Source of the DNA: Escherichia coli
GTDB taxonomy: Bacteria > Pseudomonadota > Gammaproteobacteria > Enterobacterales > Enterobacteriaceae
DNA length: 64,000 nucleotides
Strand: one strand, 5' to 3'
NCBI GenBank assembly: GCA_025336725.1
Contig: GCA_025336725.1_3647.1
Part shown: piece after piece, positions 7,316-56,239 of the stretch
Position numbering within the stretch: position 1 is the first letter of the stretch
Layout of the letters: each line of letters opens with the position of its first letter
The notes under the pieces: generated by a model
Told to the model about the DNA's origin: nothing
Database searches by the model: none
What the model saw: only the letters and a program-made list of their open reading frames with translations
Translations under genes and position numbers: made by a program

Positions 7316-7789
7316 TTATTTGTTAGATTCTGCACGTGCACGAGCAAGTGCTTTTGCAACGTTTTCAGCAAGAATTTCTTCTGCGGATTTTGCAATATCA
7401 TCCACAACAGGTTCGCCATCATTACCATGTTCAGTGGTGGCAAACTCTTCTTTGGTTTTATGCACCTCTGCTTCCAGCTCTTCAATTTTTGCTTGAGCTT
7501 TCTCCAGCATAGCTACGATAGGTTCGTTAGCTTTTTCCAGCATGAAGTCAACCAGGGTTGCATGATCTTCTTCACCAACAAAGCTTAAAGCTTGAGCTTT
7601 AGCCAGCATTTTAGCTTTTTCAACTTCAACCTGGGCCTTGATGATTTCTTCAGCTTTACTCTGGGTTGCTTTCAGCTCTTCTACTTGCTTCAGCAGATCC
7701 AGATACTCTTTAGTTTTGGTTACGTCCACCGGATTCTCCTCGGTATTTGCGGATTTTGCAACATCATCCACCTCGGTAGTTTTATCCAC
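7316..7789 (-). CDS. Scaffolding protein (putative)
   Basis: 157-aa acidic, Ala/Glu/Lys-rich predicted coiled coil, upstream of capsid gene. Confidence 0.45.
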   Translation of the reverse strand: MDKTTEVDDVAKSANTEENPVDVTKTKEYLDLLKQVEELKATQSKAEEIIKAQVEVEKAKMLAKAQALSFVGEEDHATLVDFMLEKANEPIVAMLEKAQAKIEELEAEVHKTKEEFATTEHGNDGEPVVDDIAKSAEEILAENVAKALARARAESNK

Positions 7790-7809
7790 CTCAGCAGGTT
7801 CCTGTCTAC

Positions 7810-8295
7810 TTAACAGATCAGGTTCCCTTCTTTATCGAAGAGATCAGCGGTTACTTGTTCAAAAATCTGTTGTGTTTTTAACGAACTGCTCTGATCTACC
7901 ACGTTAAGCTGCTTGCCTTCTTTTGCAGCTTTATGAATGGTCACGTTATCACAACGCTCTTCCAGCCATGCAATGCAAGACTCTGCGTCAGCTTGCGCCC
8001 ATTCCCAATCAGGATGCTCTTTAGCCCAAGCTTCCTCTTCAATCTCAAAACCAAGCATGTGTGCGAGTGCTTTGGCATCGTCATACCACATATCGAAGAA
8101 ACGACGCAGGTATTCTTCAAAACTCAGCTCCACAGTAACTTGGCGAAGTGCCTTAACAATATCGTCTGTTAACTGCTCAGGCTGAAGATCACTCTTCATC
8201 AAAAGAGATACAGGTCTGTTGTTAGCGCTATAGCCTTGCGCCTTATGGCACAGGGCAATCCCCTTCTCTTTAATAGTGATTGTTTTTTCAGACAT
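7810..8295 (-). CDS. Hypothetical head morphogenesis protein
   Basis: 161-aa track ORF between portal and scaffold. Confidence 0.3.
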   Translation of the reverse strand: MSEKTITIKEKGIALCHKAQGYSANNRPVSLLMKSDLQPEQLTDDIVKALRQVTVELSFEEYLRRFFDMWYDDAKALAHMLGFEIEEEAWAKEHPDWEWAQADAESCIAWLEERCDNVTIHKAAKEGKQLNVVDQSSSLKTQQIFEQVTADLFDKEGNLIC

Positions 8296-13088: not shown

Positions 13089-13165
13089 TGGTCTCCACGG
13101 AGTGATTCGAACACTCGACCTCCTGATCCCAAATCAGGCGCTCTACCAAGCTGAGCTACGCGGAG
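13089..13165 (-). tRNA. tRNA-Pro (anticodon TGG)
   Basis: Hand-folded cloverleaf: acceptor CTCCGCG/CGTGGAG, anticodon stem CCTGA/TCAGG with loop TTTGGGA, T-loop TTCGAAT, encoded CCA. Confidence 0.65.
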
Positions 13166-13174
13166 TTTATAATT

Positions 13175-13249
13175 TGGTGGCCCTGGGTGGAATTGAACCA
13201 CCGTCTGGCGATTATGAGTCGCTTGCTTGAACCTTCCAGCTACAGGGCC
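13175..13249 (-). tRNA. tRNA-Met (anticodon CAT; could be Ile-lysidine)
   Basis: Acceptor GGCCCTG/CAGGGCC, anticodon loop CTCATAA, T-loop TTCAATT, encoded CCA. Confidence 0.6.
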
Positions 13250-13250
13250 A

Positions 13251-13326
13251 TGGTGCTGATGGCAGGACTCGAACCTGCAACCTATTGATTACAAATCAAT
13301 TGCACTACCAATTGTGCTACATCAGC
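13251..13326 (-). tRNA. tRNA-Thr (anticodon TGT)
   Basis: Acceptor GCTGATG/CATCAGC, anticodon stem ATTGA/TCAAT with loop TTTGTAA, T-arm GCAGG-TTCGAGT-CCTGC, CCA. Confidence 0.6.
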
Positions 13327-13331
13327 AAAAA

Positions 13332-13430
13332 GGTGCTAGGCGATGGAATCGAACCACCTATGTATTCAACGACTACTTCGTCTATTTTCAGGATTAAAAA
13401 TCCTCGCCCTTGCCAAAGGGCCTACCTAGC
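13332..13430 (-). tRNA. Atypical tRNA-like element (~99 nt), identity unresolved
   Basis: Good acceptor (GCTAGGT/GCCTAGC), D-arm and T-arm (GGTGG-TTCGATT-CCATC); only plausible anticodon hairpin AGGA-TTTTTAA-TCCT (TTT) plus a ~30-nt variable region with its own hairpin. Confidence 0.4.
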
Positions 13431-13528
13431 ATATTATGCGAATCATGCTGCTAGTCGGCGATGACGACTGTAACATTTGTTAATCCGGTTCTGCTTCCGG
13501 AGCTCGCTTAATTTCATGATCCACGATC

Positions 13529-13618
13529 TGGCAGAGAGTAATGGAATCGAACCATCATCGAGGATATCTCAACGGGACGGTTTTCAAGACCGCTTGAGCA
13601 CCATGCTCCCTACTCTCT
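13529..13618 (-). tRNA. tRNA-Ser (anticodon TGA), long variable arm
   Basis: Acceptor AGAGAGT/ACTCTCT, anticodon stem GCGGT/ACCGT with loop CTTGAAA, ~20-nt variable arm, T-loop TTCGATT, CCA. Confidence 0.6.
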
Positions 13619-13730
13619 TTTTATAAACAACACTGATAATGACACTGATTTTCGAACAGTTAGTGACTAGTATAAACGACGATAAACATCAATGTCATTA
13701 TCTATGTTATTTATCACAAATATGTAATTT

Positions 13731-13817
13731 TGGTGGGGAGTGATGGAGTCGAACCACCCGAGTCGCAATGACAATAGATTTACAGTCTACACCGCTACCC
13801 CTACGGTATAACTCCCC
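13731..13817 (-). tRNA. tRNA-Tyr (anticodon GTA), long variable arm
   Basis: Acceptor GGGGAGT/ACTCCCC, anticodon stem GTAGA/TCTAT with loop CTGTAAA, ~15-nt variable arm, T-loop TTCGACT, CCA. Confidence 0.6.
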
Positions 13818-13821
13818 GATT

Positions 13822-13896
13822 TGGCACCCCGTACTGGACTCGAACCAGTGTCAACGGCTTAGAAGGCCGCTGCTTTATCCACTAAGCTAACAGGGC
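13822..13896 (-). tRNA. tRNA-Arg (anticodon TCT)
   Basis: Anticodon stem GCGGC/GCCGT with loop CTTCTAA, T-loop TTCGAGT, CCA; acceptor contains G-U wobbles. Confidence 0.55.
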
Positions 13897-27052: not shown

Positions 27053-27676
27053 GAGAGCGTCTATTATCCATAGACCAGTCGTTGACACACACAGCTTGTG
27101 TTGTATGGGACGATGGAAAGCCTGTTCATAAGGTTGTATTACGAACTCAAAGCTCATCTGCAAAAGAGAAGAAACCAGGGACGGTTTCTTTTGCAACAGC
27201 TGCTGAGCGTATTGACTGGATCTGCAAACAGGTCAGATATTATATCCACACGCACGGAGTTGACACCGTGGTTATGGAAGGGCTTTCCTTTGGATCACGC
27301 GGGGATGCCACACGTGAACTGGCGGGTTGTTTTACGGTCTCGAAGTATGCTTTGGGATGCTTTAGCAGATTGTGAAAATGACGGCCTGTTTAAGGTCCAC
27401 ACAGTAACACCGACAACCGCCAAAAAGTTTGCTCGTAGTCATCTTCCTGAAGAACTTGCTTTTGAGGAGAAGAAAAAGCTTGACAAAAAGACAGGTAAAG
27501 AGCATACTGTGAAGAAACCTGTTACGATGGATAAAAAGTTAATGGTTAAGGCCTGTGAAGTATCTGAACCAGGGTTTCTGGATGGGATCAATTTAAGATA
27601 CAAGGTAAGGCCGATCTGCAGATGCCTACGGATAGGCAGGGCGCATCTGGAGGGATTATCGCAAAGCGTAAAATAA
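27049..27676 (+). CDS. RNase H-fold nuclease (RuvC/YqgF-like resolvase candidate), apparently frameshifted
   Basis: SIDQSLTHTA...VVMEG in the first frame; continues in a second frame after ~27340 (near TGTTTTA). Confidence 0.3.
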
Positions 27677-35032: not shown

Positions 35033-37344
35033 TCACCAAAGTAATTAAAAGTAACGGATGTGAAGTTGAATTCGATCCAGAACGTTTAAATAAGGCAGCT
35101 ATTTTCGGTGACGACGGTAACGGCAATTGGTCACATATTGCAATGGATGCATACAAACGTCTGTATGATGGATGCACAACCAAAGAAGTTAACCAAGCTA
35201 TTATAGATTCATGTGTTAGCCGTAAAGACGAAGCACATTCCCGTATGGCTGGTCGTGTTCTTATTGGTCAGATCTATAAAGAGGCTTTTGGAGGGTTTAC
35301 AAAGATCCCTTCCTTACCATCATTCTACAATACCATGGTTGAGAAAGGGTATTGGGAGGATATGGGTTATAGCTTTACTGAGTTAAACACTTTAAACACT
35401 GTTATTGATCACAGTAAAGATCTCGGTTATGGCTATGCAGTCCTTAAACAGTTTCGTGACAAATACGGGATCAAGGATACTCTTAAAGACACCCTGTTTG
35501 AATCTCCCCAGATGATGTTTATGGGGATAGCAATGGCTGTAATGAAGAATATGCCTAAAGAACGCCGTATTAACGATGTTGTAAAATTATACACTTATCT
35601 GTCAGACTTAAAGATCAATGCCCCGACACCGTACTTAAACGGTCTACGCACAGGCAAGACAGGGTATGCATCTTGTTGCGTAATAAAAGCTGACGATACA
35701 GCAAAGTCTATTGGTGTGGCACGTGAAGTTGCTTACACAATGACGGTTAACCAAGCAGGCATTGGCTACTATTTATCGTCAAGATCTGCAGGTGATGGTG
35801 TTCGTGGTAACACGATTAAACATATGGGAAAGCTCCCATATTATCGTGGTATTGATGCTGGGGTTAAGGAGAATAGACAACAATCCCGTGGTGGTTCGGC
35901 AACAGTGTCATTCCTTGCACTGGATCCTCAGATTGATGAGCTAATCCGTTTGAGAAACCCTATGACTGTTGCTTCAAAAAGAATCAACACTATGGATTAT
36001 TCCATAGGTATTAATAGGTCGTTTATCAACCGTGTGGCTAAAAATTTAGATTGGATGCTTGTTTCTTATAAGCACGCACCTCAGCTGCATGAAGGCATCT
36101 TCACCATGTCTATGGAGGAGTTTGATGCAGAGGTTGATCGGATCGCTAAAGATGACAGTATTCCTAAAACATGGATCCGTGCTAGAGATCTTGCTGCTGA
36201 ACTTATCACGCAGCGTACTGAGGTAGGAAGACTGTATGTATACTGGACAGACGAGATGAATAGGCATACACCTTTTAAAGATGTAATCTATTCAAGCAAC
36301 CTGTGTGCAGAGATAGCCCTTCCGACAAAAGGCTATTCAGATATGCGTAATATCTTCAAGTATGATGCTGATGATGGTGAGGTTGCATTGTGCTTCCTAT
36401 CATCTCTTGTAGCTGGGAGGGTTACCCCAGAGGAGTATGAGGACGTTGCATACTACACGGTGCTTATGATTGACAATGTTATGGAAATCATGACATATCC
36501 GTATGAAAATATGGAGAGCACTGTTAAAAAACGCAGATCCATCGGGGTTGGCCTTACCAATGTTGCACATTTTATTGCCAGCCACAAGGTTACTTACGGA
36601 TCTCCTGAAAGTAAACAGCTTGTTCACGATCTTGCAGAACTCCACAGCTACAGCTTGCATAAGGCAAGTTTACGGTTGGCAAAAGAGCGTGGTGTCTGCG
36701 AGTGGATGCATAAAACAAAATATCCAGAAGGTTGGTTACCAATCGACACCTATAACAAAGAGGTCGATAGCGTGGTGAAAGATCCTTCTCTTAAACAGGA
36801 TTGGGAAGGGTTACGTAAAGAAATAATTGAAAATGGTGGGCTACGTAATAGCGTTCTTGAAGCATATATGCCTAATGAAAGCTCTTCGCTGGCAACAAAC
36901 ACCACTAACGGGGTTTATCCTGTCCGTGAGCACATTATCTTTAAAAAGTCGCCACAAGGGCAGGTGCTGTTTATCGTTCCTGACTATGATGAGTTGAAAG
37001 AGTATTACACTTCGGCTTGGGACGTTGATACTAACGACATGATCGATATGTATGCTGTGATTCAAAAATTCACAGGTCAGGCAATCAGCGCGGATTTATA
37101 CATCGACTACACCAAGTTGAAAGATGGTAAAATTTCAATGAAGGAGCAGCTGGGTTACCTTATCCGTGCTACTAAATTCGGGATGAAGACATGGTATTAT
37201 TTAAACTCCAGGGTTGGTGCTGGTGACTCCTTGGCAGAGGAACTTCATGCCAAGAAACAGGCTGAAGATGAAACCAGAAAGAACTATCCTTTGATTGCAG
37301 ATAGTTCAGTTGAAGATCCGTATTGCGAAAGCTGTGCACTATAA
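35029..37344 (+). CDS. nrdA: Ribonucleotide reductase class Ia large subunit
   Basis: 771 aa, NrdA-typical length, followed by NrdB-like and glutaredoxin genes. Confidence 0.7.
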   Translation: MITKVIKSNGCEVEFDPERLNKAAIFGDDGNGNWSHIAMDAYKRLYDGCTTKEVNQAIIDSCVSRKDEAHSRMAGRVLIGQIYKEAFGGFTKIPSLPSFYNTMVEKGYWEDMGYSFTELNTLNTVIDHSKDLGYGYAVLKQFRDKYGIKDTLKDTLFESPQMMFMGIAMAVMKNMPKERRINDVVKLYTYLSDLKINAPTPYLNGLRTGKTGYASCCVIKADDTAKSIGVAREVAYTMTVNQAGIGYYLSSRSAGDGVRGNTIKHMGKLPYYRGIDAGVKENRQQSRGGSATVSFLALDPQIDELIRLRNPMTVASKRINTMDYSIGINRSFINRVAKNLDWMLVSYKHAPQLHEGIFTMSMEEFDAEVDRIAKDDSIPKTWIRARDLAAELITQRTEVGRLYVYWTDEMNRHTPFKDVIYSSNLCAEIALPTKGYSDMRNIFKYDADDGEVALCFLSSLVAGRVTPEEYEDVAYYTVLMIDNVMEIMTYPYENMESTVKKRRSIGVGLTNVAHFIASHKVTYGSPESKQLVHDLAELHSYSLHKASLRLAKERGVCEWMHKTKYPEGWLPIDTYNKEVDSVVKDPSLKQDWEGLRKEIIENGGLRNSVLEAYMPNESSSLATNTTNGVYPVREHIIFKKSPQGQVLFIVPDYDELKEYYTSAWDVDTNDMIDMYAVIQKFTGQAISADLYIDYTKLKDGKISMKEQLGYLIRATKFGMKTWYYLNSRVGAGDSLAEELHAKKQAEDETRKNYPLIADSSVEDPYCESCAL

Positions 37345-37349
37345 TTTTA

Positions 37350-37371
37350 AAGGGGCTTCGGCCCCATTTTA
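37350..37371 (+). terminator. Hairpin plus T-tract between nrdA and nrdB (attenuator-like)
   Basis: GGGGC-ttcg-GCCCC followed by ATTTT. Confidence 0.45.
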
Positions 37372-37382
37372 GAGGTAGAATA

Positions 37383-38470
37383 ATGGCTGTATTTAATGCT
37401 GAGAACACCGCTCATAAAACTGGTGACTATCCGCTGTTTCTGGGACAGCAAATGGGCATGTACGACTCTATCAACAAAAAATATCCACAACTGTTTGAAC
37501 TATACAAAAAACAAAAAGAGCAAGATTGGGCAGAGGATGAAGTGGATTTGTCGCAATCTATTTCAGATTTTGTAACATGCTCTAAGTCAACTTATGACGT
37601 GATGGTGCAGACCTTGATGTGGCAATGGGAGGCTGATAGCGTTGCGGCAAGATCGATTATCTGCCTCTTTTCACCATTCATCACTAATAGCGAGCTTTTC
37701 ACTCTACTGATGAAACAGTCAGAGATTGAAGTTCTTCACGCACTAACCTACTCAGAGATTGTTAGACAATGCCTCCCTAATGCTCGTGAGATTATAGAAG
37801 AGATTCAGGAAAACCAAAACGTTCTGAGCAGATCTGGCGTTATTGTCAAATACATGCAAGAGCTTGAGATTATTGGTGCAAAATACCGACTGGATCCTTC
37901 TAGTGTTGAAGAAGATATTGTGCGGAAATGCATTCTTAGAGCGCTTTTGCACTTTTAGCTCTGGAAAGTATTGAGTTTGTGCAAGTTTTGCATATACTTT
38001 CGCAGTAGCTGAACAGGGTATTTTTTGTTCAGGTAGCGCAGCTTGTTCAAAAAATCATGCTTGACGAAATGCTGCACTCGAAAGGTGATTTTGCCATCAT
38101 TGATATCCTGCTTAATGATCCAGCATGGGAGAAAAGCTTCCTTGAGATAAAAGGGGAGTTAAAAGAGATTCTTGATGAAGTACGAACCAAAGAGTACGGT
38201 TGGAGCGACTATATTTTCAGCGAAGGAAGAGCGATTATAGGTCTTAACTCACCGTTGCTTAAAGAATGGGTTGACTATAACTGTTCACCGATTTATGATT
38301 ACTACGACATCGACAAAGACTTTGTGCCGCCAACAAAGGACCCGCTACCGTTTATGCAGGTGTGGATGAAACCTTCATTGCAACAGACGGCGAACCAAGA
38401 AATGTCGAACACTGACTACCGCGTCAACACAACTGTTAACGACGCTGAAGAAGAAATTTGGGAGTTTTAA
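37383..38470 (+). CDS. nrdB: Ribonucleotide reductase small subunit, disrupted by about three frameshifts
   Basis: N-part has ExxH-Y (EIEVLHALTY); the SFAxxFAxAE and DEMLH motifs appear in different frames within 37940-38060, each switch at a T-run. Confidence 0.65.
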
Positions 38471-45767: not shown

Positions 45768-46028
45768 TTGTGTATTGTTGTTATCAACAAGGGGGTCATT
45801 TATGTATGTCATTTTCAATTTACTCAAGACAGGCGAAACACTACACAGAGATTCTGATCACTCAGAAAAAATCTGTAGAAGGTGAGGGAATATCATCATA
45901 AATGCGTCCAGATCGGGTTTTTGATAGGCTTATTGCTATGATCCCTCTTGAGAAGTATACCCTCTGACAGGTCATAGGGATGCTTGGGATTTAATTGATT
46001 ACATAGATTCATTTAAGGAGCCTAGTGT

Positions 46029-46466: not shown

Positions 46467-46700
46467 ATGAAAGTTAAATTTCTTACAGATTTAGGATACC
46501 CTTCCTTGGTTGACTGCATCGGTAAAATTGTGGAAGCAAAACGGCTATCTGCAAACGATAATGTTGTCATGGTTAAGGGAAAAGATTTATTAGCTGCAGG
46601 TGCAGAGTCTGGCAGGATCTCTCCTGACTATACGTATTACCTGTCTTTAAGTAATCTACCAGAACGAGGCGGCAAAGGCCTTGAAGTTGTAGAGGAGTGA
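46467..46700 (+). CDS. Small paralog-family protein (MKVKxLD...DLLAAGA)
   Basis: 77 aa; shares N-terminus and LIAAGA core with 50029 and 50243 ORFs. Confidence 0.4.
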   Translation: MKVKFLTDLGYPSLVDCIGKIVEAKRLSANDNVVMVKGKDLLAAGAESGRISPDYTYYLSLSNLPERGGKGLEVVEE

Positions 46701-47230
46701 CAGGTATGCTTCTGATTAACTGGGAATACCTCTATGGGGACAAAGATCCTGTTGCGTTTGTTGATCGTAGATGGAGATATACTGAAGAACAACTGGCTGC
46801 AAAAAATTTAACTGCAAAACGCAGAAAGATCATCCAGTGCAAGTATAAATACGCACAGTTTGCTGCAAAAGTGTCTCCACAAATCGAGAGCTTTGTGCTT
46901 AAATTGTATGACGAGTACCTCAAATTCAAATTGGATTTTGTACAGGTATACCGTGCACAGATACGGCCAGATACCAGCATTTGTAGATGGAAGGTTGTTT
47001 GTGACGGTAAAGATTTGCCACTCAGCTTGACAATTGAGCAGCGTTGGGGGTATCATGAGTGCGGTCTGTATGAGACTTGGGATGTCATTGTAGATCCTGC
47101 TAAGTACCTGAACACAGAGGAGCTGGAATATATCAATAAGGTTATTCTAGATATGTTTTTCAACTACACTCGTGAAAACTCCGAGAAAGAACGAGATAAT
47201 TTTCTTGACACCATCAGCAACCATCTGTAG
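46697..47230 (+). CDS. Hypothetical protein
   Basis: 177-aa track ORF. Confidence 0.35.
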   Translation: MTGMLLINWEYLYGDKDPVAFVDRRWRYTEEQLAAKNLTAKRRKIIQCKYKYAQFAAKVSPQIESFVLKLYDEYLKFKLDFVQVYRAQIRPDTSICRWKVVCDGKDLPLSLTIEQRWGYHECGLYETWDVIVDPAKYLNTEELEYINKVILDMFFNYTRENSEKERDNFLDTISNHL

Positions 47231-47260
47231 TATATAATTTAACCTACAAAGGGAGAGCTA

Positions 47261-47497
47261 ATGAGTATAAATGTTGTGCTAATAGGTTACCTGGTAATAG
47301 CCGTTATAACAGCGGTATTCTTGACAGGTGTATGCATCGTGTCTAGACGAAGGGTGAAGTTTGATGATTTTATCACCATCATCACTGCTGCACCTTTTTG
47401 GCCTATTGTTATCTTCATCGTAATAATGTGCCTAGTTGATTACTACAAGAATATCCGTAAGGAGAAAAAGGGGAGTAGGGATGGAGACCGCACCTAA
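47261..47497 (+). CDS. Small membrane protein
   Basis: 78 aa with two predicted hydrophobic helices. Confidence 0.35.
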   Translation: MSINVVLIGYLVIAVITAVFLTGVCIVSRRRVKFDDFITIITAAPFWPIVIFIVIMCLVDYYKNIRKEKKGSRDGDRT

Positions 47498-47698
47498 AAC
47501 TGTTTATACTGTTCTTAAAGAGATTGCGTTCTACGCAGATCTTAGCCAGGCACCTTTATGGGAAAAGAGCATGTATTTAAAGTGGTGCGTTAATTTAGGG
47601 AGACCTTCCAGTGTTTCAAGACATGTTTATTGAGATGCTATCTGGGGTATTGTTACTGGTAGCCATCTTAGGTGGTGCAGTTCTGATGTATAAATATC

Positions 47699-47902
47699 TT
47701 GAAAAAGGAGACAGCAATGGCAAAAAATAAATCTTTAGAGCAGGCTGAAAACCTTCTCCACGAGCTGGTAAAGGAGTGGAAAGTTGAATACTCAGATTTT
47801 AATGCAAGAGAAGGTGAGGATTATTGGCCTACGGAGCGCTCAGAGGGGGAGTGGTATCAAGATTTTATAGAATGGTTATATCAGACGTGCGATGAGGGGT
47901 GA
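47699..47902 (+). CDS. Hypothetical acidic protein
   Basis: Track ORF; probable start MAKNKSLEQ near 47717 after AAAGGAGA. Confidence 0.3.
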   Translation: MKKETAMAKNKSLEQAENLLHELVKEWKVEYSDFNAREGEDYWPTERSEGEWYQDFIEWLYQTCDEG

Positions 47903-48309
47903 CGATGTTTGTTAAATATGTAAAAACGTGCCTCAACAGTCTTGGTAGAGAGCATTGGTACACACTGCTTGAAAAAGGAGAAATTTTAACAAAATCTGGA
48001 AAGATAACTTTGATACCTTTGGACGATAAAGATCCGTCACTACTTGTCATAGATGATTACGTTACAGGTGTGTCGTACGAGGTATCTGTAGAGAGGTTAA
48101 TACGCAGATCTGGAGGTCCTTATGACCGAAGAGAGTATGTTTTCGATTCCGTTACAGAGAAGGAAGATCCGTCCCTAATGTTTAGGATGGTGATCAGGGA
48201 TATGAAATCATCTATAAATAGGATCGTAAAGGACATTAGAAGGCCTTTTAGGGTAAAAGTTAAGAAGTTTTTGATTCTAAAAAGATCAACATACTCGCCG
48301 TTGTGCTAG
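47899..48309 (+). CDS. Hypothetical protein
   Basis: 136-aa track ORF. Confidence 0.3.
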   Translation: MTMFVKYVKTCLNSLGREHWYTLLEKGEILTKSGKITLIPLDDKDPSLLVIDDYVTGVSYEVSVERLIRRSGGPYDRREYVFDSVTEKEDPSLMFRMVIRDMKSSINRIVKDIRRPFRVKVKKFLILKRSTYSPLC

Positions 48310-48342
48310 GCGTAATTCAACTTCTGTTAATTTTGCACTATT

Positions 48343-48372
48343 TTGAACTGTTGTTTAAGTAATGTGTATTAT
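48343..48372 (+). promoter_or_regulatory. Sigma70-type promoter followed by a palindrome
   Basis: TTGAAC - 18 nt - TATTAT, then ATGGCACA-aagga-TGTGCCAT. Confidence 0.45.
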
Positions 48373-48422
48373 GGCACAAAGGATGTGCCATAATTAAATA
48401 AACTAAGAAAGAGGTAGAGAGA

Positions 48423-48770
48423 ATGTCAAAGATTAAATCGATATTAATGTGGGTGGCTGTTGTAGCTTTTGTAGGATACTGGACTTGGGAAACTGAATTA
48501 AAAGATATTGGGTATACCAGCCTTGAGAGCAAGGCGTGCATTGGCATAACCGATGCATTCAGGCAGAATGCTATGGATCACGAATGTGTCGATGCAGATA
48601 TAGATGAGAAACTGTCTAAGGACAAAGATTTTTACCATGGTCATGCCTTGCTTGATAGTGGTGACACTGTAGAATTCTGGTCGTGGTTCCGTGAAGATGG
48701 GACAATAAAGACAGCAGTAAAGATTTCCAACAAAGAGTTGATGCTGTTGCAGCAGAAGGAGGTGCAATGA
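48423..48770 (+). CDS. Secreted or membrane-anchored protein
   Basis: 115 aa, N-terminal hydrophobic segment ILMWVAVVAFVGYWTW. Confidence 0.35.
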   Translation: MSKIKSILMWVAVVAFVGYWTWETELKDIGYTSLESKACIGITDAFRQNAMDHECVDADIDEKLSKDKDFYHGHALLDSGDTVEFWSWFREDGTIKTAVKISNKELMLLQQKEVQ

Positions 48771-49054
48771 TCTGGATATCCTACGCTGATGGCACCATGC
48801 TGTATACTGCAGGTACTAGATATGAAGTTAAGGAGGACGATAAAAAATTTATCGTAAAAACATTTGACAAGGACGACAACCTTTTGCTAGAATTGACTTA
48901 CAAGGTTGGGGAGGTATCTAGCATCCAATTGGATTGCGGTCATAAAGATAACCCGCTCAAGAAACCTGGGGTAGGTAAATCTTCAGAAGAACGCCTGTCT
49001 CGTATTGCAGAAAGCGTTTCTGCACAAAAATCTAAGAAGGGGACTAGAAAATGA
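48767..49054 (+). CDS. Hypothetical protein
   Basis: 95-aa track ORF. Confidence 0.3.
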   Translation: MIWISYADGTMLYTAGTRYEVKEDDKKFIVKTFDKDDNLLLELTYKVGEVSSIQLDCGHKDNPLKKPGVGKSSEERLSRIAESVSAQKSKKGTRK

Positions 49055-49245
49055 AAAACTTACGTTTTAACACTTATTACTACAACACCTTGAATGATTT
49101 GTATTATATTGTTCGAAGTAAAAGTCCTGAAACAGTCCTATTCTGCCGCGAACCTTTCAAAGGGGAGGAAGTAGAGTCTGAGATGAATGTTAGCCATATT
49201 ACCTCTTTGTTGCTCTCAGGCGCAATGGAAGAAGCAATATTCTAA
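49051..49245 (+). CDS. Hypothetical protein
   Basis: 64-aa track ORF. Confidence 0.3.
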   Translation: MKNLRFNTYYYNTLNDLYYIVRSKSPETVLFCREPFKGEEVESEMNVSHITSLLLSGAMEEAIF

Positions 49246-49263
49246 ACCAGGCGGGAGGGTTTT

Positions 49264-49461
49264 ATGAAGCACTATTGCCTGTTTGGTAGGATGGGTGTAG
49301 ACTGTGATTGGGTTTTCTTAAAACTTGTCAGCATCCGAGAGTCAATCCCAGAAGAAGAGCAAGAAAGTGAGCTGATGGCATGGATCAACTATTACGGAAA
49401 CACTTTCAGGTATGTCAAAATGGAAGGGCTGCCAAGCGAGGCTGAAGATGAAACTGTTTGA
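49264..49461 (+). CDS. Hypothetical protein
   Basis: 65-aa track ORF. Confidence 0.3.
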   Translation: MKHYCLFGRMGVDCDWVFLKLVSIRESIPEEEQESELMAWINYYGNTFRYVKMEGLPSEAEDETV

Positions 49462-49732
49462 GTGGTTTAAAAAGTTTAAATACCGAGCCGTTGCTGTATC
49501 GAAATGGACCGTCCGCTGGGTGGACGATGATGGAACACAAATTCCAGGTGATCAGGATACCGGATACTGGGTTATGATGGAGAACGGATTTGGGAAAAGG
49601 AAGTTTAAATGTGTTGGTGCTCCTACTCTTTTAAATGTTAGAAGTGTGCCAGGGTACAGCACTATGGTTGTTTGGGAGCTATCCGGTGTTCCTCCTGCCA
49701 ATGTGCAATATCTGCCAAACCCAGAAAAATAA
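49412..49732 (+). CDS. Hypothetical protein
   Basis: 106-aa track ORF. Confidence 0.3.
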   Translation: MSKWKGCQARLKMKLFEWFKKFKYRAVAVSKWTVRWVDDDGTQIPGDQDTGYWVMMENGFGKRKFKCVGAPTLLNVRSVPGYSTMVVWELSGVPPANVQYLPNPEK

Positions 49733-49744
49733 AAGGAGAAGATA

Positions 49745-50029
49745 ATGAGCAAGGGTGTCAGTAACAGTGCTGCAGAGTTTAAAGTGATCTGTAAAGGAAC
49801 TTATTGGATAGTGAAACAGAAGGTGTACCTATTCGGTTTCATACCGTTTTGGCAGAGATTTTGCTGGGGAGCTAACGAGCTTAAGAGATACGCCACCAAG
49901 GCTATGGCACTTATTGGTATAGCTGAATACATTGCTGCCAGGGACAGAGAGGGGAAAACTTGTTACTACACTGCTGACGAGATTCGCAACAGTGTTTACG
50001 TTCCACAACCGCCCGATGGAGACCGCTGA
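49745..50029 (+). CDS. Hypothetical protein
   Basis: 94-aa track ORF. Confidence 0.3.
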   Translation: MSKGVSNSAAEFKVICKGTYWIVKQKVYLFGFIPFWQRFCWGANELKRYATKAMALIGIAEYIAARDREGKTCYYTADEIRNSVYVPQPPDGDR

Positions 50030-50253
50030 TGAAAGTGAAAGTTTTAGATTCAAACTTCTATATTGGTCAAGAGCCTTTAGTTGGAAAAGTATTTACCGCT
50101 ATCCCTAACGAAGATTATCCTGACCTTTTAAAAATAAAAGGATCAGATCTTATTGCCGCTGGCGCGTCTCAGGAGTACTTTGACAGTCAGTGGGCCTACA
50201 ACTTTGCCCTAGGGGAGGATGTGGAGGTAGTGGAGGACGATTATGAAGGTTAA
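50029..50253 (+). CDS. Small paralog-family protein (MKVKVLD...KGSDLIAAGA)
   Basis: 74 aa, paralog of 46467 and 50243 ORFs. Confidence 0.4.
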   Translation: MKVKVLDSNFYIGQEPLVGKVFTAIPNEDYPDLLKIKGSDLIAAGASQEYFDSQWAYNFALGEDVEVVEDDYEG

Positions 50254-50497
50254 AATTCTTGACTCTAACGTCTACTTGGGACAATCATTCCTGAAGGGAA
50301 AGGTAGTACCTGCTGTATACTTCGAAGGGTTGCCGTGGGATGATCCTGTGCGGCAAAATCACAGCTATGTAGGCCACAATGTGGTGTTCATTTTGGGATC
50401 AGACCTGATCGCGGCTGGTGCTCCGGAATATTATTTCGGAGAGGACTCGTATTATGCCTTTGGGTTAGGGTCAGATGCAGATATTTTAGAGCCGTGA
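50243..50497 (+). CDS. Small paralog-family protein (MKVKILD...GSDLIAAGA)
   Basis: 84 aa, paralog of 46467 and 50029 ORFs. Confidence 0.4.
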   Translation: MKVKILDSNVYLGQSFLKGKVVPAVYFEGLPWDDPVRQNHSYVGHNVVFILGSDLIAAGAPEYYFGEDSYYAFGLGSDADILEP

Positions 50498-50900
50498 TTG
50501 GGGACTGTTGTGAAAAATAAACTGTTCAAAGTTACAATGAAAATTCGCGGAGCTTGGAGCGTAAAGCAAGGGCGTATCCCGGAATTTGAAAAAGACTTCT
50601 ACGTAGTCTCCACCTCGGAGGCTGCATGCTGTGAGCTGGCTGTACTATGCAAGAACTGTCGAAGGATACCAGACTGGTGGCTATGACGGAGAAATTATAA
50701 GCAAGGGTGTAGAAGAAATTAATGTGTTGACAAGTGAAAAAGTTTTTGTTATAGTGCATCCAGATTCCAGAGTGAAGCATTACTGGAATGCCAGAACAAA
50801 AACTTGGACACCGTTTGCAGATTCTGCTACGCCACTTTTAAACCAGAAAGCTCTTGACTCTGCCCCAAGTTATGGGGTTGTTGAAGAAAAGCTAGACTGA
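50498..50900 (+). CDS. Hypothetical protein, apparently frameshifted; paralog of 52705..53100
   Basis: Two overlapping track ORFs; C-part VIVHPDSRVKHYWNARTKTWTP matches VMRHPHSNIAYYWDVLNNEWTP of the 52705 ORF. Confidence 0.35.
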
Positions 50901-51213
50901 AACAGTGAGGTACTAACATGATGGATTTAGTTCTGGACACTGATAACACCGGAGAGTTTAAAAAGGATGGTGTAACAAGCGTTGACCAATCCTTCTCTGC
51001 CAAGATTGACTCAAAATGGACCTACAAGTTTGATGGAGATCTCCGCAAATGACTAAGGAAGGTTGTAGATGCTGCAGCCATTTTGAACGCTCTGGATACG
51101 ACCCTGTGAATCCTTTGATCAAGGATCCTGTTGAGTTTGCAGAGTATGTTCGAAAAATGGCAGATCTTGCTGTAGATATTTTAGACACTATCGACAACAA
51201 GCTATAAAAACTG

Positions 51214-51242
51214 TTGACACAACGCTTCAGATTTAGTATCAT
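51214..51242 (+). promoter_or_regulatory. Sigma70-type promoter upstream of hpf-like gene
   Basis: TTGACA - 17 nt - TATCAT, then hairpin AGAGGG-tttggtt-CCCTCT. Confidence 0.45.
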
Positions 51243-51289
51243 TGTTTTCAAAGAGGGTTTGGTTCCCTCTTCTTTAAAAGGAACACGTT

Positions 51290-51607
51290 ATGCAAATTGA
51301 AATCACTGGCAACGTAGAAATCACTGAAGGTATGGTGTCTTTCATTTCCCACAAAATGTCTAAGCTGGAGCGTTTGCACCCCTCTGCCAACTATGCACGT
51401 GTGAGTGTAAAAGTTGAAAATGATCACCAGGAAGTTATGGCGTTCATTTTTGACACTTTCGGAAAAGAAGTTATTGCCAAAGCTAAAGGCAGTGATGCTT
51501 ACGAGGCAACTGACCGTATGGTAGATGTTGCAGCACGTCAGCTGGCTAAATGTGGTGGAAAGAAAGGTAAGGGGAAAGGCAAAGTAAAGATTGACTTTGG
51601 AGAATGA
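51290..51607 (+). CDS. hpf: Ribosome hibernation promoting factor-like protein (HPF/RaiA family)
   Basis: MQIEITGNVEITEGM...KLERL...VKVEN...AKGSDAYEATDRMVDVAARQLAK parallels E. coli HPF as I recall it. Confidence 0.65.
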   Translation: MQIEITGNVEITEGMVSFISHKMSKLERLHPSANYARVSVKVENDHQEVMAFIFDTFGKEVIAKAKGSDAYEATDRMVDVAARQLAKCGGKKGKGKGKVKIDFGE

Positions 51608-51743
51608 GGTGCTACAATGGATGTGATTAAGAAATTAGTCCCAAGTGTAGAGATTGCATGCTTTGAAATTATGTTTGCAATCGCAGTTGTAGTTAATGTG
51701 TTAGGTTACGGCTATTAATATCAAATATTGAGGAGACCTCTAA

Positions 51744-51974
51744 ATGAAAATTAAATTATTCAAAACTGAGCTGGCAGACAAAAACTGTGGACTGGTCGAA
51801 GGCATGATCGTTGAAGCACAACCAGTTGACTACATGAAGGTGGTTCGTGATGCCCTGGGTGAAGGTTTTGATCTGATGGAGCCAGCTCTGCGAGAAGATG
51901 TTATCGAGATGGCTAAAAAGCACACACCGGAAGGTTTGGTAGTGTTTGTTGCTCCGGTAATGGAGAGGAGTTGA
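51744..51974 (+). CDS. Small hypothetical protein (MKIKLF-type)
   Basis: 76-aa track ORF. Confidence 0.35.
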   Translation: MKIKLFKTELADKNCGLVEGMIVEAQPVDYMKVVRDALGEGFDLMEPALREDVIEMAKKHTPEGLVVFVAPVMERS

Positions 51975-52104
51975 TTGTAACTCCGGATGTGTATGAGGTT
52001 GTAGAAGAGTAATCCTGCTTGGGTTGGAATACTTTCCTCGACAAGAAAGGTTTATAATTATTTGTGGGAAAGGAATCCCCATCTCTTACCAGAGGTGATA
52101 CCAT

Positions 52105-52368
52105 ATGATTGTTTATTTTAAAACTTCAGGTGGATACCCTGATTCTCAAAGCTTGATTGGAAAAACGTGCACAGCATACTCGCCTCTTGATGAGGAGGTA
52201 AGCGGTATCCTACAAGATATGTATCGGATTGATCCCCAAGAAGCTTTTGATCAAAACCTTGTATTTGTCAAAGGCTCAGACATGAAGTCTTTGGGGGCAT
52301 TCCCTGAAGCAGATGATGATGCTGTTTATTCGTTTATGACACCTTTTGAAGCTATGATTGTGGGGTGA
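52105..52368 (+). CDS. Small hypothetical protein (distant member of the LIAAGA family)
   Basis: 87 aa; VFVKGSDMKSLGAF resembles the family core. Confidence 0.35.
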   Translation: MIVYFKTSGGYPDSQSLIGKTCTAYSPLDEEVSGILQDMYRIDPQEAFDQNLVFVKGSDMKSLGAFPEADDDAVYSFMTPFEAMIVG

Positions 52369-52705
52369 GAATATGAAAGTACGCTTTATTGGTGAAACAA
52401 TTCCTGTGCATCTCCGGTCTCCTGAAGACTCTGCAGATCTTGCATCTCAAAAGGCGAGAGGGTATGATAAGAAAGTGATCTCAAGCAATGTAGAGCTTGA
52501 GGCCACCAGTCTACCTGACCCGGCTGCATTCTTCAATCATTATGGCTACTATTTTAGCAATCTGATGAATATTGGTGAGCTTGTGTTTATTAGTGGTGGA
52601 GAGATAGTTAGCAAGCTTGGTGGAGATCCGGATATCTTTCATGAAACCTGCCCTTTTGCATTTGTGGTGGGTTCAGATGTGGAAGTTATTGAGGAGGTTC
52701 GGTAA
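52358..52705 (+). CDS. Small hypothetical protein
   Basis: 115-aa track ORF. Confidence 0.3.
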   Translation: MWGENMKVRFIGETIPVHLRSPEDSADLASQKARGYDKKVISSNVELEATSLPDPAAFFNHYGYYFSNLMNIGELVFISGGEIVSKLGGDPDIFHETCPFAFVVGSDVEVIEEVR

Positions 52706-53100
52706 TGGTAAGTCTATACCGTGTTGAGTATAGCTCGGATACTGTATACAACGTAAGAAGCAAAGATCGCAGTGATAGAGTGCAAGAAATGTATGTTCTT
52801 GCAGATAGTCCGTTATCTGCAGCGTTCAAGGCAGGAGCTCTTGCATCTCGTTGGAAATTTGAGGGTGGATCTTTCTATGAAGAAACCCTTGAAGATTCTG
52901 TTGTTATTTCTTCTGTAGAGGTTTCAACCGACTACGAAGGGAAAAAGTTCGTAATGCGGCACCCACACAGCAATATTGCGTACTACTGGGATGTTCTGAA
53001 CAATGAGTGGACCCCTGATCTTCAGAAGGCCACTGTTCTAACCCCATTCCTGGCAGATAAGTTCCCACCAGAAGGTAATTTATCTGCACTGTTTCAGTAA
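52705..53100 (+). CDS. Hypothetical protein, paralog of 50498..50900
   Basis: 131-aa track ORF. Confidence 0.35.
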   Translation: MVSLYRVEYSSDTVYNVRSKDRSDRVQEMYVLADSPLSAAFKAGALASRWKFEGGSFYEETLEDSVVISSVEVSTDYEGKKFVMRHPHSNIAYYWDVLNNEWTPDLQKATVLTPFLADKFPPEGNLSALFQ

Positions 53101-53118
53101 TTTTATGCCACACAGGTG

Positions 53119-53147
53119 TTGACAACACCAACCCTGTGTGCAATAAT
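53119..53147 (+). promoter_or_regulatory. Sigma70-type promoter embedded in an inverted repeat
   Basis: TTGACA - 17 nt - AATAAT; CACACAGG (53109-53116) and CCTGTGTG (53133-53140) flank the -35. Confidence 0.4.
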
Positions 53148-53176
53148 ACCTTCATCTTAACAAGATAGGAGACCGA

Positions 53177-53437
53177 TTGATGAAGATTAAATTGAAAAAC
53201 CTTGAAACGGCAGAGATTCAGGAAGGTGTTGATTTCCGTTCTAAAGATGGAGACATCCTAGAGGCGAATGTCCCGACATATAAGTTGATTAAAGGTTTTG
53301 GCAACGTTCCGGAGGAGGATATTACAGACATTCTTATGATGTTGATCCTTGACGGGACTGTGTTTGTAGGTGAAGGTGAGAACGCTATTGCAATCCCGAG
53401 ACATTTTTATGAAGTAGTTGACGAAGAGGTGCTGTAA
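53177..53437 (+). CDS. Small acidic hypothetical protein
   Basis: 86-aa track ORF. Confidence 0.35.
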   Translation: MMKIKLKNLETAEIQEGVDFRSKDGDILEANVPTYKLIKGFGNVPEEDITDILMMLILDGTVFVGEGENAIAIPRHFYEVVDEEVL

Positions 53438-53788
53438 ATGAAAGTAGAGATCACAGGTTTTGATATGAATGCGGTTCCGGAAGATATTTTAGCTAAACTC
53501 CCGGAAGGTTTTGGTAACGGTGTTGTGGTTGATGCTGTTCCTCCTACCAAAGACATTCTGCTGCAGTATGGTGTGGCAGAGGAAGATGTCGATAAAGTTC
53601 TTACAATGATGGCAATCGACCGTGTTGTCGTTGTTAAAGGTCTTGAAGGTTTTGATGACGATCCTCTGATTATTCGTGGTGATGACTATAGCATCATCGA
53701 CAACGAAGGCCAAGAGTTCTACGAACCTTCTGCTGAAGATGTTCTTAACTTACTACTGGAAGCAGGCACCGAAGAGGAGGAAGAATAA
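53438..53788 (+). CDS. Small acidic hypothetical protein
   Basis: 116-aa track ORF. Confidence 0.35.
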   Translation: MKVEITGFDMNAVPEDILAKLPEGFGNGVVVDAVPPTKDILLQYGVAEEDVDKVLTMMAIDRVVVVKGLEGFDDDPLIIRGDDYSIIDNEGQEFYEPSAEDVLNLLLEAGTEEEEE

Positions 53789-54138
53789 TGAAAATTGATC
53801 CGTTACTGAAGGCTCGTGCAGAAAAAGTATACACTGTCAAGCTGACCTCTCTGGTCCCTACTTGTCATCCGGATGTAGGTTGGCCTGAAGGCCTGGTAGA
53901 GGGGACTGTAACAGCTGCATACCTTCCTAACATCAAATACCTCATGGAGATCTTGGAGATGGATGAGGAAACGGCAGAACAGTTCCAGTTAGACATGAAG
54001 CAAAGTGGGACTCTGGTTATTCACGGGTGGTATAATACTAAAGATGCAGAAGACCCTCTGGTGACTTCTAATCTGGCATATGAAATCTTAGGGCCTTTGA
54101 ACCTGGGGAAGACTAATGAAAGATCTGGTTTAGATTAA
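53788..54138 (+). CDS. Hypothetical protein
   Basis: 116-aa track ORF. Confidence 0.3.
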   Translation: MKIDPLLKARAEKVYTVKLTSLVPTCHPDVGWPEGLVEGTVTAAYLPNIKYLMEILEMDEETAEQFQLDMKQSGTLVIHGWYNTKDAEDPLVTSNLAYEILGPLNLGKTNERSGLD

Positions 54139-54205
54139 GATTAAAGATACCAATGGAGAACTCAGCCATTTTGGAATTAATGATGGTGACGAGCTGATCG
54201 CACAC

Positions 54206-54403
54206 TTGCCTACCAAGGAAGTTGTAAGCAAAGCGGTTGCCGGAGAAGAAGCTGCAATGCAGGCTGCAGGTGTGGATGAAAACTATGTAGCTATGTGCAT
54301 GTGCCGAGATCAGGTTGTTCTGTATAAAGCGTATCGACCAAACGGAGCCACGGAGTGGCTTGTATTCCGACCAGATGGGTATGAAATCTTAGAGGCACTA
54401 TGA
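54206..54403 (+). CDS. Hypothetical protein
   Basis: 65-aa track ORF. Confidence 0.3.
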   Translation: MPTKEVVSKAVAGEEAAMQAAGVDENYVAMCMCRDQVVLYKAYRPNGATEWLVFRPDGYEILEAL

Positions 54404-54845: not shown

Positions 54846-55163
54846 TTGGTGCGTTATTCACATCTCTGGTTAAAGTTTTACATACCATATTATCACCCAA
54901 GGAGCACAGTAATGACGAAGATTGACTTAAATGCTGGCGACCATGTTGTTGTCAAATGCATCGGGGATTATCTTGGATTCACAATCGGCAATACTTACGA
55001 GGCAGTAGTGGCGAATGTTTATCATGATAAAGTCCTCAGTCTTGTATTTGACTGCGACGATGACGGAGATGACCGCTACGTCTGTGAGGTGCTGGCACGT
55101 GACGATAGTGAAGATCAGAAATTCCTGGTTATCGAACTGAACGGTATTTTTGTAGAACGTTAA
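54846..55163 (+). CDS. Hypothetical protein
   Basis: Track ORF; likely start at internal Met (MTKIDLNAGD). Confidence 0.3.
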   Translation: MVRYSHLWLKFYIPYYHPRSTVMTKIDLNAGDHVVVKCIGDYLGFTIGNTYEAVVANVYHDKVLSLVFDCDDDGDDRYVCEVLARDDSEDQKFLVIELNGIFVER

Positions 55164-55886: not shown

Positions 55887-56186
55887 ATGTCTACAAAGAC
55901 AGCTAAATACTCATACATGCCAGCCACCTCAGCAGAAATAGACTTCAGTTTTGATGTGTTTCCACTGTTTGAGGTAGTTCTGGCATACCCTACTGTATTA
56001 TCTGCTCCTGAATCACTTGTGCCTGTTAAATTGCAGAACGCCATGCATTCCATGCACTACAACAATAAATGTAGGCACAGATGGTGTCAAGACGAGGAAA
56101 AAGATCTGGAGAGTTTGAGAGATTTTGATAGCCACCTTTTGACAACTTTTAGCTACTCTAATCTTGATAAGCCCTCATGGGTATAG
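55887..56186 (+). CDS. Hypothetical protein
   Basis: 99-aa track ORF. Confidence 0.3.
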   Translation: MSTKTAKYSYMPATSAEIDFSFDVFPLFEVVLAYPTVLSAPESLVPVKLQNAMHSMHYNNKCRHRWCQDEEKDLESLRDFDSHLLTTFSYSNLDKPSWV

Positions 56187-56210: not shown

Positions 56211-56239
56211 AGGACGCTCTGTGGCGTCCTTTTCTTTAT
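56211..56239 (+). terminator. Intrinsic terminator
   Basis: AGGACGC-tctgtg-GCGTCCT followed by TTTCTTTAT. Confidence 0.55.

Follow-up and report, generated by a model that had tools for sequence, protein, structure and literature searches.

Small non-essential genes with early accessory or counter-defence functions are known from large lytic coliphages, examples being dmd, ipI and arn of phage T4 and ocr of phage T7. In the Vequintaviruses, which are broad-host-range candidates for phage therapy, about two thirds of the genes are dispensable "dark matter". Here we analysed an array of small genes in a stretch of 64,000 nucleotides (contig GCA_025336725.1_3647.1 of the Escherichia coli assembly GCA_025336725.1; referred to in its entirety as the window), which was identified as DNA of a Vequintavirus, i.e. 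an rV5-like myovirus. The array is an operon-like arrangement of at least 12 small, mostly acidic accessory genes belonging to three paralogous families, so that twelve anonymous open reading frames (ORFs) can now be assigned to three defined families, with a predicted fold for two of them. Furthermore, three consecutive genes of the array, termed A4, A5 and B2, could be tied to a strong host-specific requirement that is already contained in public transposon data for their orthologs in the Vequintavirus Bas54, but on which the main text of the corresponding preprint is silent (bioRxiv 10.1101/2025.11.20.689424). We propose that the array genes are probably host-specific accessory or counter-defence factors.

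Paralogous gene families in the array

The 8.2 kb around the array share 91-96% identity with more than 110 Vequintavirus (rV5-like) genomes, each about 136 kb in size, the nearest relatives being ECP26 and NHEP1 (95.6% identity over the 8.2 kb). All ORFs named in a preliminary description of the array, which had been made from the sequence alone, were recovered on the plus strand with unchanged coordinates. The all-against-all alignment revealed similarity beyond composition for each of the three families proposed there, which comprise five (A), two (B) and five (C) genes according to our final count (Table 1).

Family A had been proposed to consist of the ORFs starting at 46467, 50029 and 50243 (A1 to A3) with those at 52105 and 52358 (A4 and A5) as distant members, and this grouping proved to be genuine. 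In a BLASTP comparison of the 130 plus-strand ORFs of the window A2 matched A3 at 5e-16 and A1 at 2e-6, followed by the links of A2 and A3 to A5 (0.002 and 0.004, respectively) and the links to A4 (0.014-0.027, with 0.014 for A1). Smith-Waterman scores compared with composition-preserving shuffles resulted in z = 5-27 for eight of the ten possible pairs (including 27, 12.7, 10.1, 8.5, 8.0 and 6.1), the weakest pairs being A2-A4 (z = 4.1) and A4-A5 (z = 2.6). A1, A2 and A3 furthermore match the PHROGs family phrog_5009 at 1e-32 to 1e-37, and A4 matches it at 1e-4.

An exhaustive HMMER search with the family A alignment over 1.84 billion representatives (E up to 1e-3) showed that the family comprises 85 clusters at 50% identity, most of them single-domain proteins of 65-75 residues. 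An independent hidden Markov model (HMM) was built from 60 distant non-Vequintavirus representatives, with the window sequences excluded. It picks exactly the five ORFs A1 to A5 (E-values from 3.5e-24 to 5e-7, Table 1; next ORF 0.13), and the outcome is the same for the set of 130 plus-strand ORFs and for all 739 six-frame ORFs. The membership of the two divergent genes is further borne out by hhalign probabilities of 96-97% for their orthogroups against the distant family A profile. The core of the family consists of an N-terminal MKVK(L/F)L strand, a GK(V/I)xxA strand, a G(S/K)(D/E)L(I/L)xxGA turn, the motif Y.F and an acidic E(V/I)VE end. Y11, L40, G44 and F58 are almost invariant over 63 distant members, and the core motif is degenerate in A5 (GGEIVSKLGG).

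A lone family A gene was also detected in lambdoid prophages of E. coli, where it is located between the Q antiterminator and the holin/lysozyme/Rz cassette amid small ORFs without known function. The encoded proteins (P0031 and P0032) share 41-45% identity with A1, and the genes are found at 8001-8228 in the loci L002 and L003 and at 371-598 in L004. Family A domains moreover occur in two- and three-domain tandem proteins and in one case fused to DUF3310. The tandem repeats, the fusion and the accessory slot in prophages fit a modular binder domain. The surroundings of three further distant members (P0045, P0053 and P0083) were uninformative, their contigs being only 1-2 kb long.

Three family A proteins from contigs of Vequintavirus size are natural chimeras, combining the N-terminus of A2 with the C-terminus of A3 (P0008), an A1/prophage-type N-terminus with the C-terminus of A2 (P0029), and the N-terminus of A3 with the C-terminus of the gene at 51049-51207 (P0041). 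They indicate recombination and deletion between paralogs, the breakpoints coinciding with the conserved DLIAAGA motif or lying close to it. Another fusion of A2 and A3, which was suspected from tblastn matches limited to residues 1-62, was dismissed, as AlexBoehm has both genes and the pattern reflects C-terminal divergence only. The gene order A-A-B is present twice in the array (A2-A3-B1 and A4-A5-B2). A plain segmental duplication giving rise to the second from the first set is unsupported, since the pairwise scores make A2 and A3 mutual closest relatives; its signal may be masked by gene conversion.

The pair of genes described as family B was likewise confirmed and could be extended to a full-length pair by means of the intact B1 ortholog of ECP26. 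In the window the C-terminal piece of the B1 gene (50631-50900) matches B2 at 7e-6 (BLASTP) and with z = 12.8 in the shuffle test, and both match phrog_7379. The intact B1 of ECP26 aligns with B2 in full length and colinearly (26% identity over 123 columns, 3e-9), including the HP.S...YW....WTP motif. Profile comparison did not reveal any relationship of family B to A or C. In the searches run, family B matched only Vequintavirus records, and the identity of B2 amounts to 99% or more in 94 of the 119 phage records.

Family C had been described as a pair of acidic proteins (starting at 53177 and 53438). The similarity of this pair goes beyond composition, but its boundaries were drawn too narrowly, as the family also takes in the genes at 51744, 53788 and 54116-54403. 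C1 and C2 are only marginally related according to BLASTP (0.09), and the shuffle test resulted in z = 7.1 and a Gumbel p of 6e-5, corresponding to 0.03 after Bonferroni correction for 528 pairs. The orthogroups of C0 to C3 align colinearly over 59-77 columns, with hhalign values of 4e-4 (C1-C2), 0.0095 and 0.029 (C2-C3). The C0 orthologs P0155-P0159 are 89 residues long and end with GNGEELIVTPDVYEIVEE, matching the C-terminal strands of C1, C2 and C3. An HMM of family C trained without C4 detects the C4 gene at 9e-5 among the 739 ORFs and its intact orthologs of 95 residues at 5e-7. The single links within family C are weak, but taken together the chain is convincing. C1 is comparatively variable, with a 52%-identical allele in phiWec189. 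The searches run yielded matches of family C only in Vequintavirus records, apart from a single homolog at the level of structure in Vibrio phage Vc1 (see below).

Searches against Pfam, NCBIfam and the PDB sequences did not provide a match for any of the three families. The Pfam models, including those for SH3 and KOW domains, did not match the window proteins at E-values up to 1, nor did they match the 63 distant family A members, and the PHROGs families matched by A, B and C proteins are all of unknown function. These results agree with the previous statement that no function is assignable to the array genes.

Requirement of the A4, A5 and B2 orthologs in a clinical isolate

The window genes have one-to-one orthologs in Bas54 (MaxBurger, MZ501093), with amino-acid identities of 91-98%. 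For this phage a preprint reports transposon-insertion sequencing (HIDEN-SEQ), from which all insertion data given here are taken (bioRxiv 10.1101/2025.11.20.689424). In the reference library in E. coli K-12, all genes from bas54_0147 to bas54_0168 are classified as "Non-essential" or "Intermediate" (Extended Data Table 8). In the uropathogenic isolate CFE311 compared with K-12, insertions in bas54_0152 (A4), bas54_0151 (A5) and bas54_0150 (B2) dropped to a mean count of 0.0, corresponding to log2 fold changes of -7.16, -6.17 and -6.77, respectively (q = 0 each). The B1 ortholog bas54_0157 showed a weak effect in the same strain (-2.14, q = 0). The identity of these orthologs to the window genes amounts to 95-98%.

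Insertions in the genes located upstream behind the same promoter (bas54_0155 and bas54_0154) and in the downstream genes bas54_0149 to bas54_0147 were without effect in CFE311, and the authors of the preprint observed little polarity overall, which argues against simple polarity as the cause of the effect on the trio. Furthermore, the gene bas54_0140, located 2.8 kb downstream in the same block, has been validated by knockout as being needed against DS-28, a predicted defence system of CFE311 (bioRxiv 10.1101/2025.11.20.689424). Publications dealing with phage EdH4 (Hachiman, CRISPRi-ART) did not contain anything on the array genes.

Predicted fold and properties of the proteins

One protein each of families A and C was modelled with AlphaFold2. 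The models of A2 (predicted local distance difference test score, pLDDT, 89.9; predicted template modelling score, pTM, 0.78) and C1 (pLDDT 88.7; pTM 0.75) both represent five-stranded SH3-like barrels, a common fold of the two families that had been missed in the preliminary description. Both models match SH3, KOW and PsaE barrels, and many of the top PDB chains are common to the two lists of matches. In C1 two helices are inserted between strands 2 and 3, which is the position of the sequence insertions in A3, A4 and A5. Families A and C are thus predicted to have a common fold, whereas a common ancestry is unsupported by sequence. Comparison of the C1 model with BFVD identified the homolog in Vibrio phage Vc1 mentioned above (template modelling score 0.72, 31% identity).

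The same comparison yielded a protein of 83 residues from Shigella phage CM1 with a probability of 0.98. The gene at 54909-55163 (+) may encode a further small SH3-like protein, its ortholog being the sole coding sequence (CDS) for 83 residues in the stretch of CM1 that was examined.

A2 to A5 and C1 to C3 are acidic proteins with isoelectric points of 4.0-4.7 and net charges of -6 to -23, while A1, C0 and B2 are milder in this respect (isoelectric points of 4.9-5.4, net charges of -1 to -6). The acidic charge speaks for an interaction with proteins or a mimicry of nucleic acids and not for nucleic-acid binding.

Organisation, transcription and selection

The array is part of a long plus-strand block of small genes, and the GC skew is positive from 18 to 56 kb. 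Nearly all genes of the block are annotated as "hypothetical protein" in the relatives, except for a ribosome hibernation factor homolog. Neighbouring genes follow each other closely, with an overlap of 11 nucleotides (nt) between A2 and A3 and one shared base each between A5 and B2 and between C2 and C3.

Six plus-strand sites match 11 of the 12 sigma-70 consensus positions, among them the strong promoters in the intergenic gaps at 51214 and 53119 (Table 1). In total 36 sigma-70-type sites were found compared with 24.7 +/- 5.3 expected from shuffles, which is a modest excess. The hexamers are conserved in those relatives where the respective site was found. The stretch from C0 to A4 did not yield a strong promoter. 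The preliminary description had assigned the array to an early region, with which the conserved sigma-70-type promoters upstream agree, the basis being the promoter consensus only. According to these sites, the block probably belongs to the early part of the phage that is transcribed by the host RNA polymerase. Our search of the literature for a Vequintavirus time-course transcriptome did not find any.

Intact copies of the array genes are present in about 119 relatives, and the ratios of nonsynonymous to synonymous substitutions (dN/dS) of their orthologs, ranging from 0.00 to 0.19 (0.02-0.04 for B2), indicate strong purifying selection. The previous notion of tandem diversified paralogs is correct with regard to the tandem arrangement and the divergence of the genes, but the orthologs give no indication that diversifying selection is ongoing.

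Table 1. Genes of the array and associated features, given as positions in the window. Lengths are in residues; HMM denotes the model of distant family A members unless stated otherwise; percentages in the last column are amino-acid identities.
Feature	Positions	Strand	Length	Matches and remarks	Bas54 ortholog
A1	46467..46700	+	77	phrog_5009 6e-36; HMM 6e-19	bas54_0166 (94.8%)
A2	50029..50253	+	74	modelled protein	bas54_0159
A3	50243..50497	+	84	insertion in loop between strands 2 and 3; phrog_5009 2.5e-32; HMM 3.7e-18; BLASTP against A2 5e-16	bas54_0158
A4	52105..52368	+	87	divergent; helical-looking insertion; HMM 5e-7; hhalign 97%	bas54_0152 (95.4%)
A5	52373..52705	+	110	divergent; N-terminal extension; HMM 2.5e-7; hhalign 96%	bas54_0151 (96.4%)
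B1	50498..50900	+	123-132 in relatives	present here as ORFs 50498-50686 and 50631-50900, both matched by the family B HMM; phrog_7379	bas54_0157
B2	52705..53100	+	131	start overlaps stop of A5 by 1 nt; phrog_7379 4e-66	bas54_0150
C0	51744..51974	+	89 in relatives, 76 here	1-nt deletion at 51955; family C HMM 3e-15	bas54_0153
C1	53180..53437	+	85	modelled protein	bas54_0149
C2	53438..53788	+	116	net charge -23	bas54_0148
C3	53788..54138	+	109 in relatives	C-terminus altered here by 1-nt deletion at 54104 (G run)	bas54_0147
C4	54116..54403	+	95 in relatives	codon 6 AAG>TAG here (54131-54133); outside the interval of the preliminary description	bas54_0146
Ribosome hibernation factor (HPF/RaiA) homolog	51290..51607	+		annotation in relatives; inside the array, outside families A-C; non-essential for Bas54 in both K-12 and CFE311	
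Sigma-70-type promoter	51214..51242	+		TTGACA-17-TATCAT, 11/12 consensus; 100% identical in five relatives; upstream of HPF, C0, A4, A5 and B2	
Sigma-70-type promoter	53119..53147	+		TTGACA-17-AATAAT, TG-extended; hexamers conserved in five relatives; upstream of C1-C4	
bas54_0140 ortholog	55887-56186	+		without annotated function; terminator-like hairpin at 56211-56230; same block	bas54_0140 (91.9%)

Putative role of the array

The dispensability of the orthologs in K-12 and the requirement of three of them in the clinical isolate are in line with what a host-specific or counter-defence role would predict, and the genes fit early, non-core, host-specific accessory proteins. The preliminary description had regarded such arrays as typical of host takeover or anti-defence, a view that is partly supported. 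Counter-defence by protein binding is considered the most likely mechanism, with a confidence somewhat better than even. This assessment draws on the requirement in a particular strain, on the predicted fold as an acidic stand-alone interaction domain, on the validated counter-defence gene in the neighbourhood and on the moron context of family A in prophages.

According to this proposal, the proteins of families A and C would be single-domain SH3-like beta-barrels of 74-116 residues which bind host proteins stoichiometrically. The genes would be dispensable for the basic lytic cycle, with individual paralogs being needed in particular hosts. The translationally coupled trio A4-A5-B2, required in CFE311 as judged from its Bas54 orthologs, would most likely neutralise a strain-specific immunity or exclusion function, and the remaining paralogs would serve in the case of other host variants. 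Our data and the published insertion data show the paralogy, the fold prediction, the promoters, the purifying selection and, for the orthologs, the dispensability in K-12 and the requirement in CFE311, whereas protein binding, counter-defence, the joint action of the trio and the early timing are inferred. Provided that SH3-like barrels indeed function as modular scaffolds for binding, new inhibitors of bacterial immunity could be drawn from this family.

A more far-reaching version of the proposal appears doubtful. It assumes that families A and C form one ancient, diversified superfamily of stand-alone SH3-like "binder" domains, which Vequintaviruses have expanded to at least ten copies directed against variable host proteins, and that the paired A proteins serve as adaptors for B in three-gene modules, in which case A4-A5-B2 would represent a new multi-component inhibitor of a defence system of CFE311.

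Several observations weigh against the counter-defence interpretation. The phenotype in CFE311 stems from one pooled experiment with one strain that is documented in one supplementary table, in which the sheets S6 (K-12 versus CFE303) and S7 (K-12 versus CFE311) are numerically identical. As the command lines of both sheets name the CFE311 wig file, the result belongs to CFE311, and the genuine resampling table for CFE303 seems to be missing from the supplement. The knockouts in the preprint concern bas54_0063 and bas54_0140 only, and none of the defence systems is linked to A4, A5 or B2. DS-28 and Tmn are the only defence systems listed for CFE311 (bioRxiv 10.1101/2025.11.20.689424). Furthermore, the orthologs of A1, A2, A3 and C1 to C4 lack a phenotype in both K-12 and CFE311, and that of C0 shows a non-significant dip in CFE311 (-2.78). 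bas54_0151 to bas54_0153 are classified as "Intermediate" even in K-12, which makes a general fitness role possible. Profile comparison of families A and C (hhalign probability of at most 8%, E-values of 0.004-0.7) did not reveal sequence homology, and the orthologs are conserved and not fast-diversifying, unlike many arms-race genes.

Among the alternatives, a general host takeover seems rather improbable. In this scenario the KOW/SH3-like barrels would dock on the ribosome, RNA polymerase or NusG-type partners and, together with the phage HPF homolog, reprogramme translation or transcription in every host.

The requirement in CFE311 could also reflect host physiology instead of immunity, which would likewise speak against the proposed mechanism. 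A4-A5-B2 would then offset a physiological or envelope difference of CFE311, such as a missing or variant host factor, and we regard this as unlikely. In line with it, the conditional essentiality was observed in a whole clinical strain and not against a cloned defence system, and according to the preprint such genes may exploit host-specific resources. However, a validated counter-defence gene is located in the same block, family A genes also occupy moron slots of prophages, and E. coli strains differ far more in immunity than in core physiology, as argued in the preprint (bioRxiv 10.1101/2025.11.20.689424).

A function as small virion-packaged proteins that are injected into the host, like the internal proteins of T4, is very unlikely. 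It is suggested by the gene at 47899-48309 in the block, whose ortholog is annotated as "virion structural protein" in some relatives. However, this gene does not belong to families A-C, the orthologs of the A, B and C genes do not carry such an annotation, and the promoters are of the sigma-70 type in a non-structural block. Finally, it is hardly conceivable that the array consists of functionless duplicated ORFs or decaying remnants, as might be concluded from the broken B1, C0 and C4 genes in the window, given the low dN/dS values and intact genes in the relatives, the conditional essentiality of three of the Bas54 orthologs, and frame breaks that occur genome-wide, including core genes, and are nothing specific to the array.

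Disrupted reading frames in the window

Compared with ECP26 and EmilHeitz, private frame-breaking changes were detected in B1, C0, C3, C4, the gene at 47899-48309 and the gene for a protein of 96 residues at 50918-51207. The frame of B1 is split by indels of -3, -1, -1 and -3 nt (positions 50616, 50630, 50644 and 50657), a variant that was found in none of 98 phage records. Frame breaks are also present in core genes, namely those encoding the head decoration protein, RNase H and NrdB, and affect about 10 of the 66 CDS in the rest of the window compared with 6-7 of the 39 CDS in the accessory block. A selective decay of the array, as considered on account of the broken B1, C0 and C4 genes, was rejected, since the core genes of the window are broken just as often when compared with ECP26. 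Due to the similar break rates in core and accessory genes, the lesions rather reflect the quality or the history of this particular sequence, pointing to indel errors or to a lineage laden with mutations and not to a selective loss of genes. Raw indel counts relative to ECP26 were uninformative in this regard, because divergent patches yield compensating gap pairs.

Genes which are intact in ECP26 and split or truncated in the window include those at 7319-7831 (-), 27086-27673 (+) and 37314-37955 (+) as well as those affected at 48267, 50630-50657, 51093, 51955 and 54104. A deletion of 97 nt was found at 49444. At 45790-46028 (+), a gene encoding 79 residues in the relatives (bas49_0175 / ECP26_00147) has been destroyed by small deletions at 45807, 45885, 45902 and 45949. 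Apart from that, six tRNA genes (Pro, Met, Thr, Ser, Tyr and Arg) are clustered in the window at 13089-13896 (-).

Comparison with known systems

The window proteins are members of existing PHROGs families (phrog_5009 with 13920, 13661, 13367 and 8603; phrog_7379; phrog_12359 / 12155 / 12457) at E-values of 1e-32 to 1e-74. As in our analysis, A1 to A3 are already grouped there, and B1 is grouped with B2. However, A4, A5 and each of the C proteins are placed in separate families, and the five-member families A and C are not recorded in this database.

The models of A2 and C1 exhibit the same five-stranded topology as the SH3-like small beta-barrels of eukaryotic SH3 domains, the KOW domains of Spt5/NusG, PsaE and OapB. 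In terms of sequence profiles the window proteins differ from these families, matching neither the Pfam models for SH3 and KOW domains nor the KOW motif.

The moron slot of lambdoid prophages between the Q antiterminator and the lysis cassette resembles the array in harbouring a family A gene amid small unknown ORFs. In contrast to the array, family A is represented there by a single gene that lacks partners from B or C and occupies a late-transcribed position.

With regard to the counter-defence genes of coliphages, no relationship in sequence or fold was found between the array proteins and any characterised counter-defence protein, and those genes are not known to occur as multiple paralogous copies in which an order such as A-A-B is repeated. 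What the array has in common with them, and with its neighbour bas54_0140, is that the genes are likewise small, acidic and dispensable in K-12, and needed only in particular hosts.

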